64,000 bases of DNA from Mobula birostris (Eukaryota), in contig NC_092371.1 of NCBI RefSeq assembly GCF_030028105.1, positions 97,057,064 to 97,121,063 on the forward strand, given 5' to 3'. Within the stretch, counting starts at the first letter, position 1. Each line of letters opens with the position of its first letter. A program made the translations under genes and the position numbers. Positions 1 through 13,700 of this stretch are shown here, piece after piece. The notes beneath the pieces were generated by a model, which searched no databases, was not told the DNA's origin, and saw nothing but the letters and a program-made list of their open reading frames with translations.

Positions 1-153
1 CTGTGTATGTTTGAGAGTGGGAGAAAACCAGAGCACCTGGAGGAGCCCATAGAGTCAGGGAGAACATGCAAGCTTCATGCAGATGGCACCTGAGATTGGT
101 ACTGTACCCAGGTCACCAGAGCTGTGATCAGCAGCTCCGCCATTGTGCTGCCC
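1..153 (-). mobile_element. Old tRNA-derived V-SINE-like relic
   Basis: Reverse complement resembles the V-SINE 5' half (GGGCAGCAC... head, 'gtgctctggttttctccca' core-like segment); related to the better copy at 31306. Confidence 0.45.
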
Positions 154-289
154 AAGGAACTTCTAAGGAAACTGAGTAAATGAGCAAGATGCACAGTAAC
201 TGACATCAAATGAGTGTTCAATGATGTAATCTTTCTCTCTCTCCGTTGAACTCCATTGAAGAACATTTGGCTGAGTTCAATGACTTTGG

Positions 290-1730
290 AACTGGAATCG
301 GTTTACTAATGTACAGTACAAAGCTTGCCTTGCAGATCAATTCATTGCATGATGTATTCAGATGGTACAAGGTAAAACAATGCAGGATAGTGTGACACCT
401 GCAGTGAAATTATTAGTGCATGTATACAATAAGGTGCAAGGTCATAACAAGTTAGATGGTGAGGCCAAGTCCATCTTATTGAACTAGGGAACCATTCAAT
501 AGTCTTATAACAGTGGGATAGAAGTTGTCCAGAAACCTGGCTTATGTATCTTCTGCCCGATAGGAGAGCTCTAAGGTAGGTGGGGTTTTTGATTACGTTG
601 CCAGCTTTACTGAGGTAGCAAAAAGTATAGACAAAGTCCATGGAGGGAAGGTTGTTTTTTGTGATGTGCTGAGCTGTGTTGACAAGCACATGTCAAAATT
701 CTTTCCCCACTTAATGCCTTAAAGAGGTTGGTGAGCTTTATTTGCCATGGCATCTAGTTCATTGGACCAGTTCAGTCTATGGTGATGTTCACTCCCAGGA
801 ACTTCAAGCTTTCAACTCCCAGTGTCAGTAGCATTGATGTAGACAGGAGTATGTGGTTTCAGGTGCATTGGAGGCTCTTGAAGTAGGTGGTGAAATACCA
901 GTCCCTTTCTGTTTGAAAAGTAATAGAAAAATGTGTTTAGCTCATGAGTAAGGGATGTGCTGCTGCCAGTGATGCTCTCCAACTTTATTCCGTAGCCCAT
1001 TATAGCATGCCACAAATGATGAATGGTCTGGGATTAATTCTGGATTAGTATAATCTCTTAGCATCTCTGATAGCTCTGTGGAGGTTGTATCTCAATTTCT
1101 TGAGAAGGTCAGGGTCACCTGATTTGACTGCTGGAGTCCTACCCTTTAGTAGGGAGTGGATGTCCCTCATCAATCTCGATTTCTGGTTTGGGGACACCCA
1201 TGTTATGCTCTTATGCCACACAGTTCTCAACACACTTGCTGATAATGTTTGTGCAGGTGCAGATATACGCATTTGGGCTGACAGCTGAGTCTAAACATTA
1301 ACCAGTCTGCTGGCTTCATGTAGAAGTTCATCTCTTTCCTCAGATCACCAGTGTATGACTTTCTGTAATGGATTCACCTGTTTCTACTGCTGTTCGTACG
1401 CAGGGACTAGGAGAACAGCTTGGTGGTCAGATTTACCAAAGAGTGGATAAAGGAATGGGGTGGGGGTTGGAATGGAATGGTGGAGTGTGACTTGGTAGGC
1501 ATCTTTGATGGTGGTATGGCAACCATCAAGGGGTGTTTGGGATCCCGGTGGGACAGGAGAGGTCCTGGTAGCACTTCCTTAACACACTTTTGAAGTTGGC
1601 CTGGTTGAAATCATCTGCAATGATGAAGAGGGCCCCATGGTATTCTGCTTCTGTGCTGTTAACCACAGAGTATAGTTGAGCGTAGGCTTCACATTCATGT
1701 GTGGTAGGCAGCAATAGTGAAGGTGGGCAG
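290..1730 (-). mobile_element. Degenerate Rex1/Babar LINE fragments
   Basis: Minus-strand ORF pieces IIADDFNQANFKSVL (APE endonuclease), PNQK...AVKSGD...RYNLHRAIRDAKR and HTPVYINA are Rex1-type ORF motifs; many stops. Confidence 0.7.
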
Positions 1731-1783
1731 GTTAGCTGAAGTGAACTCCAATGTGAGTAGACCTGAGGAGAGCTAAGGTACCG

Positions 1784-2465
1784 GTGACCCCTGTTTCCAT
1801 CCAGGGGGTCAGGGTGGACATGGTGGAAGATTACAAATACCTGGGGATACGAATTGACAATAAACTGGACTGGTCAAAGAACACTGAGGCCGTCTACAAG
1901 GAGGGTCAGAGCCGTCTCTATTTCCTGAGGAGACTTAGGTCCTTTAATATCTGCCGGACGATACTGAGGATGTTCTATGAGTCTGTGGTGGCCAGTGCTA
2001 TCATGTTTGCTGTTGTGTGCTGGGGCAGCAGGCTGAGGGTAGCAGACACCAGCAGAATCAACAAGCTCATTTGTAAGGCCAGTGATGTTGTGGGGATGGA
2101 ACTGGACTCTCTGACGGTGGTGTCTGAAGAGAGGATGCTGTCCAAGTTGCATGCCATCTTGGACAATGTCTCCCATCCACTACATAATGTACTGGTTGGG
2201 CACAGGAGTACATTCAGCCCGAGACTCATTCCACCAAGATACAACACAGAGTGTCATAGGAAGTCATTCCTGCCTGTGGCCGTCAAACTTTACAACTCCT
2301 CCCTTGGAGGGTCAGACACCCTGAGCCAATAGGCCGGTCCTGGATTTATTTCCTGGCATAATTTACATATTACTATTTAACTATTTATGGTGTTATTACT
2401 ATTTATTATTTGTGGTGCAACTGTAATGAAAACCAATTTCCCCTGGGATCAATAAAGTATGACTA
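1784..2465 (+). mobile_element. 5'-truncated Rex1/Babar LINE (RT C-terminus plus 3' UTR)
   Basis: ORF 1784-2332 YKYLGIRIDNKLDW...RLYFLRRLRSF...FYESVVASAIMFAVVCWG...SFLPVAVKLYN; AT-rich 3' UTR ending AATAAAGTATGACTATG. Confidence 0.85.
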
Positions 2466-4052
2466 TGTAAGGGTTGGATATTCCAATCTGGGTGAGCAGA
2501 AGTTCTGCAGAACCGTCATGTCCAAGCACCATGAGGTGCTGATTAAGAAGGCACCCCCCCCCCCCACCTCTAACTTTGCCTCAGAACACCAAATGAATTG
2601 TGAAGGGCTTGGTTTGTACCACACAGTTAAGTGTGCCACGTTTCCGTGAAACAGAGCATACAGCAGTTGCTCAAGTCTCTCTTGGTAGGTCAGCTTTGTC
2701 CTTTGTTCACCAAGTTTGTTCAAGGCTAGAAAGGGGGTCTTGAACCCACGCTGTTTTGGTTTTTACCTGCAGGCCAGCCCTCTTACCACACTTCCGAGGT
2801 AAGAGGCTGCATGTGGTAGGTCCTGGAAAACCTGAAGTGGAATCGCATGGACTGGAATGCTAATGATCGCTTAAGGACAGACTTGGAAGACCTGGAGTGG
2901 ATTCCTTTGGAATGGATGGCAAATTGTTGTTCCCATATTGGTCTTAGGGGTCTGCTGAATGATGAGCAGGTTTCCCTGGCAGGTGAGTGGGGATTTAGGG
3001 GAGTCTTGGACCAGGGTGTTCCCTAGAGTAAGGCTTCAGATTGGAGAGGCATCGGCATCAAACCTCAGTGTCAGGTGTTCCCACAGCCCCGGCCAGGCCC
3101 GCATTGGGTCAGGCCTTATGCCCCAGCTCTTCTCCACCATTTAAAAAAAAATTATTTACTAAGTGCAATCGTGAACAATAGCCAGATCAGAAATGCTGTT
3201 CAAGTCAACTAGTTCCCAAGTAGAACTCTGATAGGCCAATCAGATGGTTCACTGCTGCTCAGTGATAGAACACAAAGAAATCATATGTACAATTAAGAAA
3301 CATTAAAAAATAGTAGAAATACTGGAGTCATGATGACCATGATGAGGACCATAGCCGGTCCTTGCTTTGGGTGGCAGTACTATCAGTAATACCTGCATGT
3401 TTCAGAGAACATAAGAATTAAATTGATTTGATGCAAGATCTGTGAAAACATTAAATTAATGGAAAGCAAATATAAACGGAGCCAGAAATAATGGTCGAAC
3501 TTTAAGTACGGCGCACAGGTAGACACAATGACACAGTGGTGTGATGACGTATTCCATTCACATCCTTCGTACATATAACCATAATTAATTATTTAAACAA
3601 CAAAGGGTGCTTAATCAAACAATGTATTTACCATATTATTCAAATATTACTGTTATATTAAATACACAACACTCCCTGCATAGCTATAATCACCAACTCA
3701 ATATAGTAATCACAAAATAATCTGCAGATGCTGGGGTCATATAGCATGTTTCTCAACTTACATACACATGGTATACAGTATATACAGTATGCTACATAAT
3801 ACAGCTGCTATATAGACATACACAGCATAGTAAATTTTAAATTGTCCCATTCAGGCTTAAAGATTTAATTGCTGTAGAGGATTTTTTACTCTTGTGGGAT
3901 GATGTTTTTCCTGACAAGGTGTTCACTCTGCTTGGCAGGCGAGATTTGTGGCTATGAAAACACTCTTAGGTTCTGGAGCATTCTCTGTGGTGGTTGTAGG
4001 AGTTGACTCTTAAGACTGTAGGAAGTGGTCCTAACTGCTCTGGACACCTTTC

Positions 4053-4920
4053 TTCTCCTTTTCTCAGCTTTTCTCTCTGGATCTCATTTGATCCTTGCTT
4101 CCGTCCTGGGCCCAGTTTCTTTCTCTCTCTTTATCCTACTCTTGATTCCTTTATCGGTTGACCTCCCTTTCCCGACCCTTGGTTCTCTCATGATCCCTTT
4201 CACAGTCTCACTCATGGTCTTTCTTTCTATCTCGTCTCTCCTTTTCAACTTCTTGTCTTTCTTTGTCTTGCCTTTTCTTTTTCTAGTTTCTTGTCAGTAT
4301 CTCTGTGTTTGCTAATTTCTCATGAAATTAGGCCCCATTTCCATAGCACTTATGTCATCCTTCTCTTTCTTTTCCCTTTTCTTCTTTCTAGGATGTCCAT
4401 CTTGATCTTGGGAAGGTGCATTTAGTTCATGGGAATATTCTCTTATTAATCTTTTTATTGCTCCCTTATGATCTGATCACTCCTCTCGGTTCCCTCATTC
4501 ACAACATCATGTGATGAATCCTTTGTTTTCAGATCTCCATTGACTCCCTTCTGTTTGGTCTTCCATTTGGTCTTTGGTCTTTGCATCTAATTTTATGAGC
4601 AGGTTTTTGTTTCTCACTTGAATTTCATGCAATAACCTTCATGCACACAGAGCAGATTCCGGTTGTTTTTACTTACAAAAGCTGGATGTTTGCAACTTTC
4701 CTAAAACTTCTTGAACTCTCTTCCAGCTTAAAACCAAGCCACATATCACAAGCAACTGCCTGATTAACATATCAGAAGCTTTCTCTAATATGTTGCCTAC
4801 ATAAACTGTTGTAGTCAGACCACTGCTTTCGTCATTTTTGCGATTCTGCTGAGCAGCCTGGCCCTTCCTTGGTCCAATATGCTTTCCAATCAGAAGCACA
4901 GATGTTGGCACTGACACCTG
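4053..4920 (-). pseudogene. RBM25: Processed (intronless) RBM25 fragment inside the LTR element
   Basis: Translates with stops and frameshifts as VSVPTSVLLIGKHIGPRK...NDESSGLTTTVYVGNILEKASDMLIRQLLVICGLVLSWKRVQ...GKLQ..FCK*KQPESALCA*RLLHEIQVRNKNLLIKLDAKTK...GAIKRLIREYSHELNAPSQDQDGHPRKKKREKKEKDDISAMEM...ISKHRDTDKKLEKEK..KERQEVEKERRDR. This is colinear with the RBM25 RRM and the start of its RE/RD-rich region as recalled. Confidence 0.9.
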
Positions 4921-4951
4921 TTTGCCCTCTGTTGGGCATGGAGACTGTTTT

Positions 4952-6150
4952 GGCATCATCCAGAACCTTTCTTAATTCACTTTCAGTTGACTATATTTCA
5001 GGGGATGTGGCATGCAAATGGTAGATGGAACTCCAATCAAGTTGTAGTTGACGGCACCAAGATGCTGGCCCTCCTGTATTAATTACTTAAAATGTGGCTT
5101 GCTGGTTGTTTTATCTCACCATTACAAATGTCATTTCCACAGGAATTATCTTTTCTCAAGTATAAGTTCTGAGTTGGATATCTGTAGGCTTCAGTTCTGT
5201 ATCTTTGAAATGCCGTTCAAATTAATTTTGTAGAATAACTGTAACAGCTGAGCCAGTGTCCAATTCCATTTAAATTAATTTGCTGCTCACTTCCGGTGTA
5301 AGTCATTTTGCTTGTCTATTGTTATTTTTCATACTGTAAATTGATAGACGACTCAGTCCTGTGTCACTCCCATCATTATCAGATTTTTCATCAACAGCAT
5401 GCAAATTAGTCTCTTTTTGAAGCTGCAACTTCACTTTTTAGCTTTTTCCCTTCCATGTGCATCCCATTTATTTTTGTCTGCCCAGCATGCTCTTTGCATG
5501 TGACCTACTTTGTTGCATTTTCTGCAAGTTTTACCTTTAAATCTGCATTGGTCTGGTGTACGTGAGCCCCTGCCACATCAGAACACAGTTGATTCAGCCA
5601 GGCAGGCTTCCATCTAGATGTTGCAATTTTATCCATGTTCACTTTCATTACTGACTGGAACTCTATTGCATCTTTGTCTGCTATTTCCATTGATACAGCA
5701 ATTTCAACTGCTCTTTTAAGTGTAAGTTGTGCTTCAGTTAGGAGCTGTTTTTGAATGCTTTCTCATAAGATTCCATGAATTAAACAATCGCTTACTGCAT
5801 CATTAAGCCCATCACTGAACTGACCATGCTCACAACTTTTTCAATTTAGCCACGTACGCTGAAATGGACTCCCTTTCCTTTAGATTTCACTTATGAAACC
5901 TAAAGTGTTCTGCAATCAACAATGGCTTTGGTGCTAAATGTTCCTGTATTACTTTCAATATATCAGCAAAGTTCATTTTGGCTGGTTTAGTTGGAGCAGG
6001 CAAACTTCTATACAAATCATATGCCTTTAAATCCGATACACTCAGCCAAATTGGCACTCACTTCTCATTGGCTGTTTCATTTTCTCAAAAATATTGCTCA
6101 ATATGCTTAGTAGGCGAAATCCAGTTACCTCATATGCAATTGTGTGAGTC
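4952..6150 (-). pseudogene. Gypsy gag-protease relic
   Basis: Minus-strand reading gives QEHLAPKPL, LTLKRAVEIAVSMEIADKDAIE, zinc knuckle CRKCNKVGHMQRAC, protease MELDTGSAVTVI and LQLDWSSI...ELRKVLDDA; multiple stops. Confidence 0.85.
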
Positions 6151-6495
6151 TAACTTTGTGATCTAACCAGCCTTTTCTGTGTTTTGTTAACATTTATGAT
6201 TATTATCATGCAGTATTCATAGCTTATGATGCTATGAATACACTCATTTTCTGGTTTTCTCTTGCAAAGAAAGTGTGCTGCACTTTTAAAGACTTGAACA
6301 TATCGCAGTGCTTCAACACACAGGTAGTTGTCTTTGGTTAGTTTAAAATGTCACAACTGTTATGTTTTGTAACTCCAAAACATAAATTTAATTGAAAGCA
6401 GAAACAAGGAGCTGGGAATACGGTCTAACTTTGTTATAACTTTAAGCATAAATGAGCTAGTGTGGTGACGTATGCTATTCACATACTTTGTACAT

Positions 6496-7140
6496 TAGAT
6501 TAGATTAGATTAGATTAGATTATGAGGAGACGCAGTCCTCTTTTATTGTCATTTAGTAATGCATGCATTAAGAAATGATATAGTATTCCTCCGGTGTGAT
6601 ATCACAGAAACACAGGACAGACCAAGACTGAAAAACTAACAAAAACCACATAATTATGACATATAGTTACAACAGTGCAACAATACCATAACTTGATGAA
6701 GAACAGGCCATGGGCACAGTAAAAAAGTTCAAAGTCTCTCGAATGTCCCACATCTCATGCAGACGGGAGAAGGAAGAAAACTCTCCCTGCCATGCCTGAC
6801 CACAGTCCGACTCTGAGTCCTCTGAAAGCTTCGAGCCTCCGACCAGCCCTCCGACACCGAGTACCGAGCACCATCTCTGCCGAATGCTTCAACCTCAGCC
6901 TCGGTTGCCAGCAGCAGGCAAAGCCAGGGATTTTGGGGCCGACCCTCCGGAGATTCTCGATCTCACAGTAGCAGTGGCAGCGAACCGGGCATTTCAGAAG
7001 CTTCTCCAGATGTTCCTGTGCTTCTCACGTCTGTCTCCATCAAATCAGAATTGTGCATGGCATCCTACTTACAAATACGATATCATTTCACCGGAGAGGT
7101 GCGCGCGCTGCATCATGCCGCCATCTTCTCCTTCCGCCTT
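6496..7140 (-). mobile_element. Non-autonomous LINE-derived retroposon inserted in the 5' LTR
   Basis: Minus strand starts AAGGCGGAAGGAGAAGATGGCGGC and ends AATAAAAGAGGAC...CTCAT(AATCT)n; a possible short TSD 'cat' lies at 6493-6495 and 7141-7143; it splits the LTR sequence (gtacat|atgatc). Confidence 0.65.
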
Positions 7141-7759
7141 CATATGATCATAATCAATTATTTAAGCAACAAAGAATGCTTAATCAAACAAATATTACTG
7201 ATACATCAAATACACAACAATATGTAATTTGTAGGTCTACAAATATCAATACTAGATAAATTCTGCTTCTCATGTCTGGGTGCAACTTAGACTTAAACTT
7301 ATCCTGATTATTACAAAGCATAAAATACCAATGTCTTGTTTGTTTTGAATAGTTCTATTAAAGATATATGGCAAGTGTCCTCCATGCTATAGTTTATAGG
7401 ATGACACTTTCTTGTAATTGTGCAGTTATTTCCCCAGTAACCTTGCATCCTTTGCTTTTCTCCAATCTATCTTGCCCTCTCATAAGAATATCAAGAGATT
7501 CTCCCTCCGCCACTTTATGTGGATGAGAATTTCTAAGATTCCTAACTCTGAAAGAATAAAAATGACCCCATTTCTGCCCCAAATGATCAACCCTTTATCA
7601 GAATCAGTGATTACTGGTTCTAGATTTCCCACAAGGATACTTTCAAGATTCAAGATTTAAGATTGTTTAATGCCATTTCCAGTACACAAGTGTAAAGAGG
7701 AACAAGATATTTGTCATTCCAGATCTGATGCAGCACAAAAAAAAATCTCAGTAAGAGAA

Positions 7760-7870
7760 TGCAACACACACAAAATGCTGGAGGAACTCAGCAGGCCAGG
7801 CAGCATCCTCCAGCATTTTATGTGTACTGCTTGGCTTTCCAGCATCTGCAGATATTCTCTTGTTTGTGAT
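7760..7870. mobile_element. Short Penelope terminal-repeat fragment
   Basis: acacacaaaatgctggaggaactcagcaggccaggcagc followed by the inverted tccagcattttatgtgt...ttccagcatctgcaga; same repeat as at 22.9-23.4 kb. Confidence 0.7.
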
Positions 7871-8479
7871 AGTAAGGTAAATAACAGAAAATATAAAAAA
7901 AATAATATATAAGATAGCTTATATACATAGATTGATTGTATGTCCATAAAGTGACTGAAGTGCCTGTACATAAGGTGACTGACAGGAAATGGTGAAGTTT
8001 TGGGTTTGGGTGACTTCATTTCCACATCCACCATAACTCCCCAGGATCTTAGATGTTTCAATTGCCGCCATAACACTTTTGAACTCTAGCTGATATAAGC
8101 CTAGTCTGTTCACAATTTCCTCATAATATAACATTTCATTCTAGGTTTTAGTGCAAGTAAGCCTCTGTCCTGGTTCGAATGTTAGCACCCTTAACTGAGT
8201 AGACCAATACCATGCAGTGTACTCCAGTTAAGATATCACAAATGTCCTAAATAAATGACACACAGTCTTTCCAGGCAGCGGTTCATTTCTCATCACAAAT
8301 ACAAACAGTATATTTGCCAGCTTACCTAAGTATTTGTGCTAGCCTTTAGTGAATCATGTAAGAAGGGGAGGGGAGGAAGGGAGGGAGGGAACGTTGACTC
8401 AGACCATGAGAGGCCTGCGTCAGGCATTTTCATGCCTTACAAGGTGCAGATTGGAAGTCTGTGTGGGGTGCCACTCCTC

Positions 8480-8612
8480 GCACAGACTAGAGCAACGTGT
8501 GGTTAAGTGCCTTGCTCAAAGACACAAACACGCTGCCACAGCAGAGGCTCAAACTAACAACCTTCAGATCACTGGACGAACGTCTTAACCACTTGGCCAC
8601 GTGCCCAACACG
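8480..8612 (-). mobile_element. tRNA-derived SINE head
   Basis: Reverse complement GTGTTGGGCACGTGGCCAAGTGGTTAAG (A-box-like)...GTTTGAGCC (B-box-like)...GTGTCTTTGAGCAAGGCACTTAACC. Confidence 0.6.
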
Positions 8613-8844
8613 TGTAAGAAGGGAATTTTATATTTTGGGGTTTATAAGGGCAAAGGTGTGACCATTGTTGAAGATAGCTTTGGAACATTTGGTAACAGTC
8701 TAACCTGTAATTTCAAATCTTACCCCAGAGACCTGAGCATATAAAGACATTGAAACTATTCAGATGCATTCATATGAATATCATATGCAATAGAGTAAAA
8801 TTTTGTTACTCTTACATGCATGTACTCTTAAAGTGAAGATGACC

Positions 8845-9108
8845 ATCCACCATAGATGGTCCCTAGCCCTGCCATGAATGTAGGAGTATCGGGCATGTGG
8901 TTTGCAACCCTCTACCGTAAACACCCAGAGCTACAGAAATGCCAGCAGAAGCTCCAAAGACTGCATCCCTGGGAGAAGAAGGATCTTTGAAGCTGGGCTG
9001 CTCCTGGGATAACTTGAAAGACTGGGCCAGGTCAAAGGGCTCTGGCAAGCCACTGTTGGCAGCCTATGCCCCAGTAGGGGTGATGCACTTAACTAATTAC
9101 TAACTATT
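8845..9108 (+). mobile_element. Non-autonomous element with RTE-like 3' end
   Basis: Ends ...ggctctggcaagccactgttggcagcctatgccccagtaggggtgatgcactt(aact)n-like tail, typical of RTE-clade 3' termini. Confidence 0.45.
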
Positions 9109-9779
9109 TGGCTTAACAATCACTTGCTGCATCTGAATGTTTACCTTCAGTGATTTGTATATAAGTACAGTTAGGTACTTCCCACTTTTGCATTATTTAA
9201 AATTACTGTGCTCTTCTGTTTTGTGCCACAGGCTGTACAACCTCAGATTTATTGGAATGACGTTCCAACCACCGTACTCATTCACCTTGACCTTATCCTC
9301 ACCAAATCTTCTTGGATTCTCCTCCACAACCTTGCAACTCCATCCAGTTTTGTGTTAACATGAAACTCAGGTCTCCTCGGCTGAATTGTTGATATAGATA
9401 GTGAATTGATGGGACCTTAAGGTCCAGCTTCTGTGGATATCACCAGATATCACCAGATATCCTGCTTCGGGTTTGATTTGAAGAAGGAGTCTGAGTGGGA
9501 GTGCCGAGAAAGACATTTTTGAAATTTTCGTTATTTTTTGTTCTCCAACGGCGTTCTGAGAGGCGGGACTGCGCAGGCGTGTGACGTCGGGCTGTGCAGC
9601 GCGGCAGATTTAAAAGGAACAGAGCCTCATAGAGCGGGCAGCGGAGTTTGCGGGCTGCGGAGTGAGCCGGGAGCAGAGTGAAGACTTAAGGGCTTCGGCT
9701 CAACGGGCTTAGGCGGAAACAGGCGAGGCGAGGGAGGTTTGGCATTCATTTTCTGTTGTTATTTGAGGAGAGGGGCAGT

Positions 9780-10715
9780 ATGAGTGTGAGGGCAGTTTGC
9801 TGTTCTCGGTGTCGGATGTGGGAGGCCCTGGAGTCTACAAGCCTCCCAGACGTCTACATCTGCACCAAGTGCATCGAGATGCAGCTCCTAAGGGACCGCG
9901 TTACGGAACTGGAGCTGCAGCTCGATGACCTTCGTCTGGTCAGGGAGAGTGAGGAGGTGATAGAGAGGAGTTGCAGGCAGGTGGTCACGCCGGGGCCACG
10001 GGAGGCAGACAAGTGGGTCACGGTTAGGAGGGGGAAGGGGAAAGGTCAGGTAATAGGGAGTACCCCGGTGGCTGTGCCCCTTAACAAAAGGTACTCCTGT
10101 TTGAGTACTGTTGGGGGGGACAGCCTACCCGGGGGAAGCGACAGTGGCCGTGCCTCCGGCACAGAGTCTGGCCCTGTAGCTCAGAAGGGTAGGGCAAGGA
10201 AGAGGAGGGCAGTTGTGATAGGGGACTCGATAGTAAGGGGGTCAGATAGGCGATTCTGTGGACGCAGTCCAGAGACCCGGATGGTAGTTTGCCTCCCTGG
10301 TGCCAGGGTCCGGGATATTTCTGATCGTGTCCAAGATATCCTGAAGTGGGAGGGTGAGGAGCCAGAGGTCGTGGTACATATAGGTACCAATGACATAGGT
10401 AGGAAAAGGGATGAGGTCCTGAAAGGAGAATATAGGGAGCTAGGAAGGGAGTTGAGAAAAAGGACCGCAAAGGTAGTAATCTCGGGATTACTGCCTGTGC
10501 CATGCGACAGTGAGAGTAGGAATGCGATGAGGTGGAGGATAAATGCGTGGCTGAGGGATTGGAGCAGGGGGCAGGGATTCAAGTTTTTGGATCATTGGGA
10601 CCTCTTTTGGCACAGGCGTGACCTGTACAAAAAGGACGGGTTGCACTTGAATCCTAGGGGAACCAATATCCTGGCAGGGAGATTAGCGGGGGCTGCTGAG
10701 GTGACTTTAAACTAG
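9780..10715 (+). CDS. CR1 ORF1p: zinc finger, leucine zipper and SGNH esterase (open)
   Basis: First ATG at 9780; CSRC...CTKC, heptad LRDRVTELELQLDDLRL, esterase blocks VIGDSIVRG, HIGTNDI, KDGLHLN; no internal stop. Confidence 0.9.
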   Translation: MSVRAVCCSRCRMWEALESTSLPDVYICTKCIEMQLLRDRVTELELQLDDLRLVRESEEVIERSCRQVVTPGPREADKWVTVRRGKGKGQVIGSTPVAVPLNKRYSCLSTVGGDSLPGGSDSGRASGTESGPVAQKGRARKRRAVVIGDSIVRGSDRRFCGRSPETRMVVCLPGARVRDISDRVQDILKWEGEEPEVVVHIGTNDIGRKRDEVLKGEYRELGRELRKRTAKVVISGLLPVPCDSESRNAMRWRINAWLRDWSRGQGFKFLDHWDLFWHRRDLYKKDGLHLNPRGTNILAGRLAGAAEVTLN

Positions 10716-10720
10716 AATGG

Positions 10721-13700
10721 TTGGGGGGTGGGAATCAAATTAAAGAGGCTAGGCGTGAGGAGGTTAGTTCACTACAGGGGGATGGGAACCTGTGCAGAGA
10801 GGCAGAAGGGTGTAAAGTGAGGGTAGAAACAAAAATTACTATGGAGAAAAGTAAAAGTGGCAGGCCGACAAATCCAGGGCAAGCATTAAAAAGGGCCACT
10901 TTTCAGCATAATTGTATAAGGGCTAAGAGAGTTGTAAAAGAGCGCCTGAAGGCTTTGTGTGTCAATGCAAGGAGCATTCATAATAAGGTGGATGAATTGA
11001 AAGTGCAGATTGTTATTAATGATTATGGTATAGTTGGGATCACAGAGACATGGCTCCAGGGTGACCAGGGATGGGAGCTCAACGTTCAGGGATATTCAAT
11101 ACTCAGGAGGGATAGACATGAAGGAAGGGGAGGTGGGGTGGCGTTGCTGGTCAAAGAAGAGATTAACACAATAGAAAGGAAGGACATAAGCCAGGAAGAT
11201 GTGGAATCGATATGGGTAGAGCTGTGTAACACTAAGGGGCAGAAGACGCTGGTGGGAGTTGTGTACAGGCCACCTAACAGTAGTAGTGAGGTCGGAGATG
11301 GTATTAAACAGGAAATTAGAAATGTGTGCAATAAAGGAACAGCAGTTATAATGGGTGACTTCAATCTACATGTAGATTGGGTGAACCAAATTGGTAAGGG
11401 TGCTGAGGAAGAGGATTTCTTGGAATGTATGCGGGATGGTTTTTTGAACCAACATGTCGAGGAACCGACGAGAGAGCAGGCTATTCTGGACTGGGTTTTG
11501 AGCAATGAGGAAGCGTTAATTAGTGATCTTGTCGTGAGAGGCCCCTTGGGTAAGAGTGACCATAATATGGTGGAATTCTTCATTAAGATGGAGAGTGACA
11601 TAGTTAATTCAGAAACAAAGGTTCTGAACTTGAAGAGGGGTAACTTTGAAGGTATGAGACGTGAATTAGCTAAGATAGACTGGCAAATGACACTTAAAGG
11701 ATTGACGGTGGATATGCAATGGCAAGCATTTAAAGGTTGCATGGATGAACTGCAACAAATGTTCATCCCAGTTTGGCAAAAGAATAAATCAAGGAAGGTA
11801 GTGCACCCGTGACTGACAAGAGAAATTAGGGATAGTATCAATTCCAAAGAAGAAGCATACAAGTTAGCCAGAGAAAGTGGCTCACCTGAGGACTGGGAGA
11901 AATTCAGAGTTCAGCAGAGGAGGACAAAGGGCTTAATTAGGAAGGGGAAAAAAGATTATGAGAGAAAACTGGCAGGCAACATAAAAACGGACTGTAAAAG
12001 CTTTTATAGATATGTAAAAAGGAAAAGACTGGTAAAAACAAATGTCGGTCCCCTGCAGACAGAAACAGGTGAATTGATTATGGGGAGCAAGGACATGGCA
12101 GACCAATTGAATAATTACTTTGGTTCTGTCTTCACTAAGGAGGACATAAATAATCTTCCAGAAATAGTAAGGGACAGAGGGTCCAGTGAGATGGAGGAAC
12201 TGAGCGAAATACATGTTAGTAGGGAAGTGGTGTTAGGTAAATTGAAGAGATTGAAGGCAGATAAATCCCCAGGGCCAGATGGTCTGCATCCCAGGGTGCT
12301 TAAGGAAGTAGCCCAAGAAATAGTGGATGCATTAGTGATAATTTTTCAAAACTCGTTAGATTCTGGACTAGTTCCTGAGGATTGGAGGGTGGCTAATGTA
12401 ACTCCACTTTTTAAAAAAGGAGGGAGAGAGAAACCGGGGAATTATAGACCGGTTAGCCTAACGTCGGTGGTGGGGAAACTGCTGGAGTCAGTTATCAAGG
12501 ATGTAATAACAGCACATTTGGAAAGTGGTGAAATGATCGGACAAAGTCAGCATGGATTTTTCAAAGGAAAATCATGTCTGACAAATCTCATAGAATTTTT
12601 TGAGGATGTAACTAGTAGAGTGGATAGGGGAGAACCAGTGGATGTGGTATATTTGGATTTTCAGAAGGCTTTTGACAAGGTCCCACACAGGAGATTAGTG
12701 TGCAAACTTAAAGCACACGGTATTGGGGGTAAGGTATTGGTGTGGGTGGGGAGGTGGTTAGCAGACAGGAAGCAAAGAGTGGGAATAAACGGGACCTTTT
12801 CAGAATGGCAGGCGGTGACTAGTGGGGTACCGCAAGGCTCAGTGCTGGGACCCCAGTTGTTTACAATATATATTAATGACTTGGATGAGGGAATTAAATG
12901 CAGCATCTCCAAGTTTGCGGATGACACGAAGCTGGGTGGCAGTGTTAGCTGTGAGGAGGATGCTAAGAGGATGCAGGGTGACTTGGATAGGTTGGGTGAG
13001 TGGGCAAATTCATGGCAGATGCAATTTAATGTGGATAAATGTGAAGTTATCCACTTTGGTGGCAAAAATAGGAAAACAGATTATTATCTGAATGGTGGCC
13101 GATTAGGAGAAGGGGAGGTGCAACGTGACCTGGGTGTCATTATGCACCAGTCATTGAAAGTGGGCATGCAGGTACAGCAGGCGGTGAAAAAGGCGAATGG
13201 TATGCTGGCATTTATAGCGAGAGGATTTGAGTACAGGAGCAGGGAGGTACTACTGCAGTTGTACAAGGCCTTGGTGAGACCACACCTGGAGTATTGTGTG
13301 CAGTTTTGGTCCCCTAATCTGAGGAAAGACATCCTTGCCATAGAGGGAGTACAGAGAAGGTTCACCAGATTGATTTCTGGGATGGCAGGACTTTCATATG
13401 AAGAAAGACTGGATGAACTGGGCTTGTACGCATTGGAATTTAGAAGATCGAGGGGGGATCTGATTGAGACGTATAAGATCCTAAAGCGATTGGACAGGCT
13501 AGATGCAGGAAGATTGTTCCCGATGTTGGGGAAGTCCAGAACGAGGGGTCACAGTTTGAGGATAGAGGGGAAGCCTTTTAGGACCGAGATTAGGAAAAAC
13601 TTCTTCACACAGAGAGTGATGAATCTGTGGAATTCTCTGCCACAGGAAACAGTTGAGGCCAGTTCATTGGCTATATTTAAGAGGGAGTTAGATATGGCCC

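Follow-up and report, generated by a model that had tools for sequence, protein, structure and literature searches.

The window analysed here is a 64,000-nt stretch of the Mobula birostris genome (G000:C3:97057064-97121063; genome size 4.0 Gb). Between positions 7219 and 3443 its minus strand carries an old, decayed Gypsy-type long terminal repeat (LTR) element in which a piece of RBM25 stands in place of reverse transcriptase (RT), RNase H, and integrase. Read from 7219 to 3443, the parts are an LTR, gag, a zinc knuckle, protease, RBM25, a pol tail, a polypurine tract, and a second LTR. All are present in the order proposed in an initial annotation of this locus, and the protease region ends, as described there, in ...RKVLDDA at 4952. 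The 5′ LTR of that annotation is present as well, but it is split by a younger 645-nt repeat (7140-6496) that went unmentioned. The features are as follows, with exons e3-e10 named in our own numbering:

7220..7224, minus strand: target-site duplication, 5′ copy (CATAT), four of five letters equal to the 3′ copy
6358..7219, minus strand: 5′ LTR with TG...CA ends, its ~220 nt divided between 7219-7141 and ~6495-6358
6496..7140, minus strand: younger 645-nt interspersed repeat that splits the 5′ LTR, with a terminal 5-nt tandem repeat; outside the chimera proper
6345..6357, minus strand: putative decayed primer-binding site region, directly inside the 5′ LTR, placed by position and by a TGG-like start in other copies
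5481..6100, minus strand: gag remnant with a CCHC zinc knuckle (5532-5485), start approximate; collinear with RBM25-free copies
4952..5300, minus strand: aspartic protease remnant and linker with an ELDTGS motif, stopping just before the expected RT start; RT comes next in RBM25-free copies
4949..4955, minus strand: 5′ switch point, 7-nt TGCCACA common to element and host mRNA, one substitution in the window copy
4918..4945, minus strand: partial in-frame cassette exon of RBM25 (48 nt in the host, 20 nt of them deleted in the window copy); the host exon, G000:C1:154450900-154450947, has AG/GT ends
4049..4917, minus strand: RBM25 e4-e9 and 28 nt of e10, encoding the RNA recognition motif (RRM) and the start of the RE/RD region (e4 4917-4747, e5 4746-4689, e6 4688-4536, e7 4535-4360, e8 4359-4290, e9 4289-4077, e10 4076-4049)
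4049..4057, minus strand: 3′ switch point, 9-nt GAGAAGAAA common to element and host mRNA
3857..4048, minus strand: pol C-terminal tail, out of frame with the RBM25 piece
3672..3687, minus strand: polypurine tract
3443..3671, minus strand: 3′ LTR, 229 nt, with 17 nt missing near its end
3438..3442, minus strand: target-site duplication, 3′ copy (CAGAT)

All reading frames of the window copy are interrupted by stops and frameshifts, its two LTRs differ by 20% (196 columns), and a degenerate 5-bp target duplication, CATAT/CAGAT, flanks the whole element. The zinc knuckle at 5532-5485 passes the Pfam cut-off (PF00098, E 1.1e-4) and was the sole match in a Pfam search that left the window's decayed gag, protease, and RRM pieces unrecognised. 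We take the ELDTGS near 5266-5249 to be the aspartic protease motif. An Rfam search of window positions 1-12000 gave no match.

The identity of the insert as RBM25 comes from protein comparison, in which 174 of 203 candidates passed E 0.001; among the best 120 of these 174 matches every named protein is RBM25, and the remainder are unnamed or hypothetical RRM proteins. One 58-residue frame of the insert reaches up to 79% identity to RBM25, and the insert is 86% identical to the genome's own RBM25 gene over 911 columns. The only match in a PDB sequence search was a weak one to the SF3B4 RRM (E 0.86). The parent gene lies at G000:C1:154.44-154.49 Mb, and its exons match a shark protein model (P0002) at 89-100% identity; the gene was located by a C-terminal protein query, a search by PWI domain having led to two other genes. 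The initial annotation had described about 870 nt of intronless RBM25. The piece is indeed spliced, but it extends over 4955-4049 rather than ~4920-4053, and its 907 nt, representing 1,072 nt of mRNA, include a cassette exon that had been missed. As that annotation implied, the fragment is multi-exonic: it draws on nine exons that span 28 kb of the host gene (10 nt from the end of e3, the 48-nt cassette exon, e4-e9, and 28 nt from the start of e10) and crosses eight exon-exon junctions, joined at AG/GT borders. Given that the shared stretch at the 5′ end sits in e3, which in the gene is 5.8 kb upstream of the cassette exon, the template must have been a spliced RNA. At the protein level, 14 of 14 comparable residues of the cassette exon are identical in the shark protein model; this exon was found in just 1 of 120 fetched RBM25 proteins and is therefore probably restricted to a lineage. 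At least half of it is retained in 74 of 83 copies of the chimera. The exon also holds two in-frame ATGs.

Both ends of the insert coincide with short stretches that the element and the host mRNA have in common. Microhomology had been suspected at the 3′ junction; nine nucleotides are shared there, and a further seven at the 5′ junction, where TGCCACA lies 10 to 4 nt ahead of the e3/cassette exon junction. For random pairs of breakpoints, at least seven shared nucleotides are expected in ~6-7 of 10,000 cases and at least nine in ~5-9 of 100,000. The protease end and the tail of the element recur in RBM25-free copies, where they enclose RT, RNase H, and integrase; the RBM25 piece accordingly occupies the position of these enzymes, as first proposed. 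In 3 of 12 RBM25-free copies examined, 2,410-2,480 nt lie between the switch points; the other nine have indels or no locatable 3′ point. The Pfam order in locus L159 is RVT_1, RT_RNaseH, Integrase_H2C2, and rve, and L154 is alike; the pol order of these relatives, protease-RT-RNase H-integrase, points to the Ty3/Gypsy type. Of 29 non-self loci picked by their protease, 4 run into RBM25 and most others into RT, and among 29 loci picked by their tail, RBM25 lies upstream in 15 by BLAST and in 2 more by eye, an integrase end in 8, and other deletions in 4. The gag-protease frame is preserved across the 5′ fusion: natural copies read from protease straight into RBM25, and upstream of the join the commonest codon is never a stop across 304 codon columns. 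Across the 3′ join, the RBM25 frame does not match that of the pol tail.

Based on these junctions and on the family described below, we conclude, with a probability of roughly 0.9, that spliced RBM25 was captured once through two microhomology-guided template switches and then spread in trans to ~2,600 sites. Following the model of PMC5131818, a germline particle would have packaged RBM25 mRNA together with element RNA. RT would have switched away from the element RNA immediately ahead of the polypurine end of pol, copied ~1.07 kb of RBM25 mRNA, and returned to the element RNA at the protease-RT boundary. The resulting hybrid would retain every signal needed in cis (LTRs, primer site, and polypurine tract), be shorter than its helper, and be mobilised in trans by enzymes from intact relatives. 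The cassette-exon isoform would have been expressed in the germline at the time of capture, and the cargo would be a passenger.

Microhomology at junctions arises in DNA repair too, which is compatible with a different order of events: a processed RBM25 pseudogene made by a long interspersed element (LINE) came first, became linked to the element as DNA, through insertion and deletion or through microhomology repair, and was then retrotransposed. LINEs of the L2/CR1/Rex types are abundant in batoid genomes, according to the accessible part of a preprint (bioRxiv 10.64898/2026.10.27.761883). However, the piece is without the mRNA 3′ end, where LINE copying begins; its cargo ends within coding exon e10, at a stretch common with the element, which is not the 3′-anchored structure of a LINE product. 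Both ends of the piece are shared with the element itself, and a search with the C-terminal 112 residues of RBM25 found three exons of the gene only and no retrocopy (3 matches among 10 candidates). This order of events is largely refuted and extremely unlikely. The initial annotation had favoured LTR-mediated template switching over LINE retrocopying, and the spliced origin and shared ends support that choice. The RBM25 piece has no poly(A) tail and no target duplication of its own, as noted there, and both LTRs are present. No remnants of a poly(A) tail or target duplication from an independent LINE insertion were found, and the piece ends in stretches shared with RBM25-free copies. The flanks also belong to one element and not to two unrelated ones, as indicated by the RBM25-free copies and by 5-bp duplications around LTR pairs.

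The chimera recurs throughout the genome, which the initial annotation had named as the sign of a non-autonomous family. A 24-mer across the chimeric 5′ junction matches 519 places within one mismatch, on both strands and many contigs; the corresponding native-junction 24-mer matches 994, and reversed-pattern controls match 0. This filter recovers 11 of 55 known chimeric copies, from which the total extrapolates to ~2,600, although better-preserved copies are over-represented in the sample; 2,866 first-look candidates agree with this estimate. All 19 of the fetched RBM25 matches are joined to the same tail and 17 of the 19 to protease, and the mRNA start position is the same in 69 of 83 copies. 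Pol-bearing relatives share LTR, gag, and tail with the chimera and are of similar age. In a survey of 40 extended loci, both LTR starts could be assigned in 20, of which 19 (11 chimeric) passed an end-quality filter. The 5-bp flanks of these 19 elements match in 60 of 95 letters, versus 28 in shuffles (0 of 20,000 shuffles as high), and their 4-bp and 6-bp flanks give no signal. For chimeric elements alone, both LTRs were assignable in 11 of 20 extended loci, and 37 of 55 duplication letters match. The chimeric copies also carry TG...CA ends, the primer-site region, and a polypurine tract, in keeping with integrase-type insertion. Given the 5-bp target duplications that flank them, the copies were integrated one by one. 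A protein search with the natural stop-free junction frame of L187 gave 46 proteins, each aligned over at most 49% of the query, and no annotated fusion in the 92-296 residue range, a result that cannot bound the taxonomic range of the family.

The cargo shrank stepwise, leaving nested deletion subfamilies. Counting the 70 anchored copies (13 of the 83 have no anchor), 52 lack exon e8 and 18 keep it, the window copy among the latter, and 34 have the shortest form, in which nearly everything after e7 is lost. An intermediate deletion form has identical breakpoints across several loci; such shared internal deletions require further rounds of retrotransposition. A 23-mer with 181 exact matches, versus 55 for the host-like form, was considered as the deletion junction and rejected, since 5 of 43 copies with this marker still hold e8; its counts mark a subfamily and not the deletion. 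Loci L005, L007, L011, and L146 are miniature chimeras with most of gag deleted and the 5′ LTR close to cargo or protease. Three others (L040, L153, and L104) combine markers from more than one subfamily, or have native pol together with a 3′ end like that of the chimera, and are likely recombinants between co-packaged RNAs. In L109, L118, L148, and L152, all RBM25-free, deletions have brought the integrase zinc-finger region up against the purine-rich 3′ site used by the chimera, which suggests another non-autonomous subfamily and a hot spot for switching.

Several observations weigh against a single capture with neutral spread in trans. The 5′ junction of the window copy is so decayed that 5 nt fit either parent. 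No intact helper was found among 20 extended relatives, all of the sampled ones being broken. In a gag-protease tree of 52 rows, from which 27 of 79 copies had been dropped for covering less than 700 of 900 nt, the chimeric copies do not form one clade (9 label changes across the 52 rows, versus 17 in shuffles); the tree is near-star, with terminal branches of ~0.13, chimeric and native copies intermixed, and almost no supported branches. Finally, substitutions that create stops in the RBM25 frame occur at 0.66-0.80 of expectation, with intervals that exclude 1, in the cargo of 83 copies over host mRNA positions 153-777. Pure neutrality does not predict such a deficit.

The missing clade would fit repeated, independent capture of RBM25 mRNA at shared hot spots, as would the use of the purine-rich 3′ site as an endpoint in the RBM25-free deletions of L109, L118, L148, and L152. 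One recurrent switch-back site is also reported for BLASTOPIA in the accessible portion of Tan et al. (PMC5131818). Nevertheless, the copies agree in their 5′ position (69 of 83), in the cassette exon (74 of 83), in 17 near-fixed differences from today's gene, and in internal deletions, and the tree is explained by recombination between hybrid and helper RNAs or by lack of signal. Repeated capture is therefore very unlikely, and the case for what was probably a single origin rests on the shared junction and not on the gag-protease tree.

The stop deficit bears on whether the single captured cargo was selected, either as an in-frame Gag-protease-RBM25 RRM fusion or as an RBM25 RNA that aided replication through splicing, export, stability, or escape from silencing. 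Apart from the scarcity of in-frame stops, such selection would suit the in-frame 5′ fusion, the retention of the RRM-coding part while the 3′ purine-rich part was repeatedly lost, and the fact that the hybrid makes up about a third of junction-bearing copies. On the other hand, an in-frame join has a prior of 1 in 3, and the losses from the purine-rich part are explained by the many short repeats there. Amino-acid change in the cargo is neutral, and the cargo does not behave as a functional retrogene: across 83 copies and 4,923 substitutions, measured against a frame-blind expectation, the nonsynonymous/synonymous observed-to-expected ratio is 0.99-1.04, and rates at the three codon positions are 0.110, 0.105, and 0.104. 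Only 31 of 184 distinct short deletions in the cargo preserve the frame, and 1 of 76 copies has neither a stop nor a frameshifting deletion, the other 75 being broken. Stop-creating substitutions occur at 0.87-1.11 of expectation in the other frames and at 0.93-0.99 in the own frame of gag-protease. Hidden CpG decay was considered as a cause of the deficit and explains it in part only, leaving 0.71-0.80. Because gag-protease, upstream in the same frame, has no stop deficit (0.98-0.99), host sequence context seems the likelier cause. Divergence is mostly post-insertion, so that selection on lineages while they replicated would in any case be difficult to detect. Taken together, we regard selection on the cargo as distinctly unlikely.

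We are likewise cautious in speculating that the RBM25 cargo gave a replication advantage, for example as camouflage against small-RNA silencing, on the grounds that silencing the cargo would strike an essential host gene. With such an advantage, under a selected cargo, one capture could have come to account for about a third of the family, and transcribed copies might still feed back on RBM25; this too is unlikely. There is a weak hint that the window copy is transcribed. One run that we guess to be RNA, none being on record as such, yields contigs over 3710-6332 with 0-1 differences each, and three more runs guessed to be RNA contain 67-73% of sampled words. Missing flank coverage in runs X2 and X13 is no evidence by itself.

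The hybrid is old. Median Kimura two-parameter divergence of LTR pairs is 0.25 in 11 chimeric elements and 0.22 in 9 others, and the copies lie at a median of 0.10 from the column yardstick. Given this similar LTR divergence and the intermixing of copies in the near-star tree, hybrid and helper must have spread in the same old burst. Host RBM25 has since the capture acquired 16 synonymous and 1 nonsynonymous near-fixed changes, or 0.117 per synonymous site. Contigs of organism B bridge both borders of the window element (2-3% different) and one contig of organism D bridges its 5′ border (6% different); the insertion thus predates the splits from organisms B and D. Dating with the epaulette shark rate of 7e-10 per generation, as given in the accessible part of PMC10587355, led to ~180 million generations, which is not credible, and we give no absolute age.

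Acutely transforming retroviruses carry gag-onc fusions in which spliced host sequence lies in frame behind gag, replication genes are replaced, and propagation depends on a helper. The RBM25 chimera is similarly in frame behind gag with its replication genes replaced; unlike these viruses, it is a germline retrotransposon with no envelope gene seen, and selection on its cargo protein is unsupported. In its sequence characters it can be classed with LTR-mediated retrocopies. Those described by Tan et al. (2016, Genome Res, PMC5131818), as far as the available part of that paper goes, consist of partial, spliced, sense mRNA replacing part of an internal open reading frame, with microsimilarity at both junctions (median 6 bp) and with neither a poly(A) tail nor their own target duplication; in-frame fusion is frequent, and they are able to move again as non-autonomous elements. 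They are young and occupy few sites (in Drosophila, two retrocopies have multiple insertion sites, although the supplementary tables may hold higher counts), whereas the RBM25 chimera is old and decayed, with hundreds of copies counted, ~2,600 estimated, and deletion subfamilies. Maize Bs1, as summarised in the same source, also combines spliced host gene pieces with an LTR element and has switch points common to all copies; it differs in having one to five copies, three parent genes, and a reported function, against one parent gene, thousands of copies, and no amino-acid constraint here. In pepper and other plants, NLR genes have been multiplied in mostly non-autonomous LTR elements, 86-123 per pepper genome, but these represent a gene family with several parents, are under purifying selection, and mostly lack gag or pol (PMC5664825, accessible part); the RBM25 chimera is a neutral single fragment with gag-protease retained. 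The mechanism is thus known (PMC5131818), and the scale exceeds that of the single-capture cases in the portions of the literature available to us. Literature searches, with Repbase, Dfam, and most subscription journals outside their reach, found no paper on an RBM25-carrying element.

The family offers a vertebrate example in which each step of the template-switch model is legible in sequence, and it indicates that one capture event can be enough to generate thousands of partial gene copies. These thousands of neutral replicates yield a mutation spectrum and a clock for comparison with host synonymous change, which is relevant to the slow clock of cartilaginous fishes, and they preserve the identity of the packaged splice isoform. 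They will also raise retrocopy counts artificially and complicate both RBM25 annotation and the mapping of reads. Should the cargo turn out to have been selected, the family would be a retrotransposon counterpart of oncogene capture.

The 645-nt repeat within the 5′ LTR is much younger than the element that hosts it: its closest relatives show 92-95% identity in all 39 of the scored non-self matches, with 8142 first-look candidates. It is far commoner in organisms A and B than in D, and its GC-rich head contains what is presumably a YY1-like motif; the repeat could give a promoter to the element behind it. In the flank, positions 7760-7840 of the window hold a very high-copy short repeat resembling a short interspersed element, and a related 38-nt stretch lies at 3697-3734, in the 3′ untranslated region of the element. 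Among pol-bearing copies, L151 contains a long tandem array (oriented positions 4520-5770), which matches part of an insertion in another copy, L155 (oriented positions ~4190-4370).

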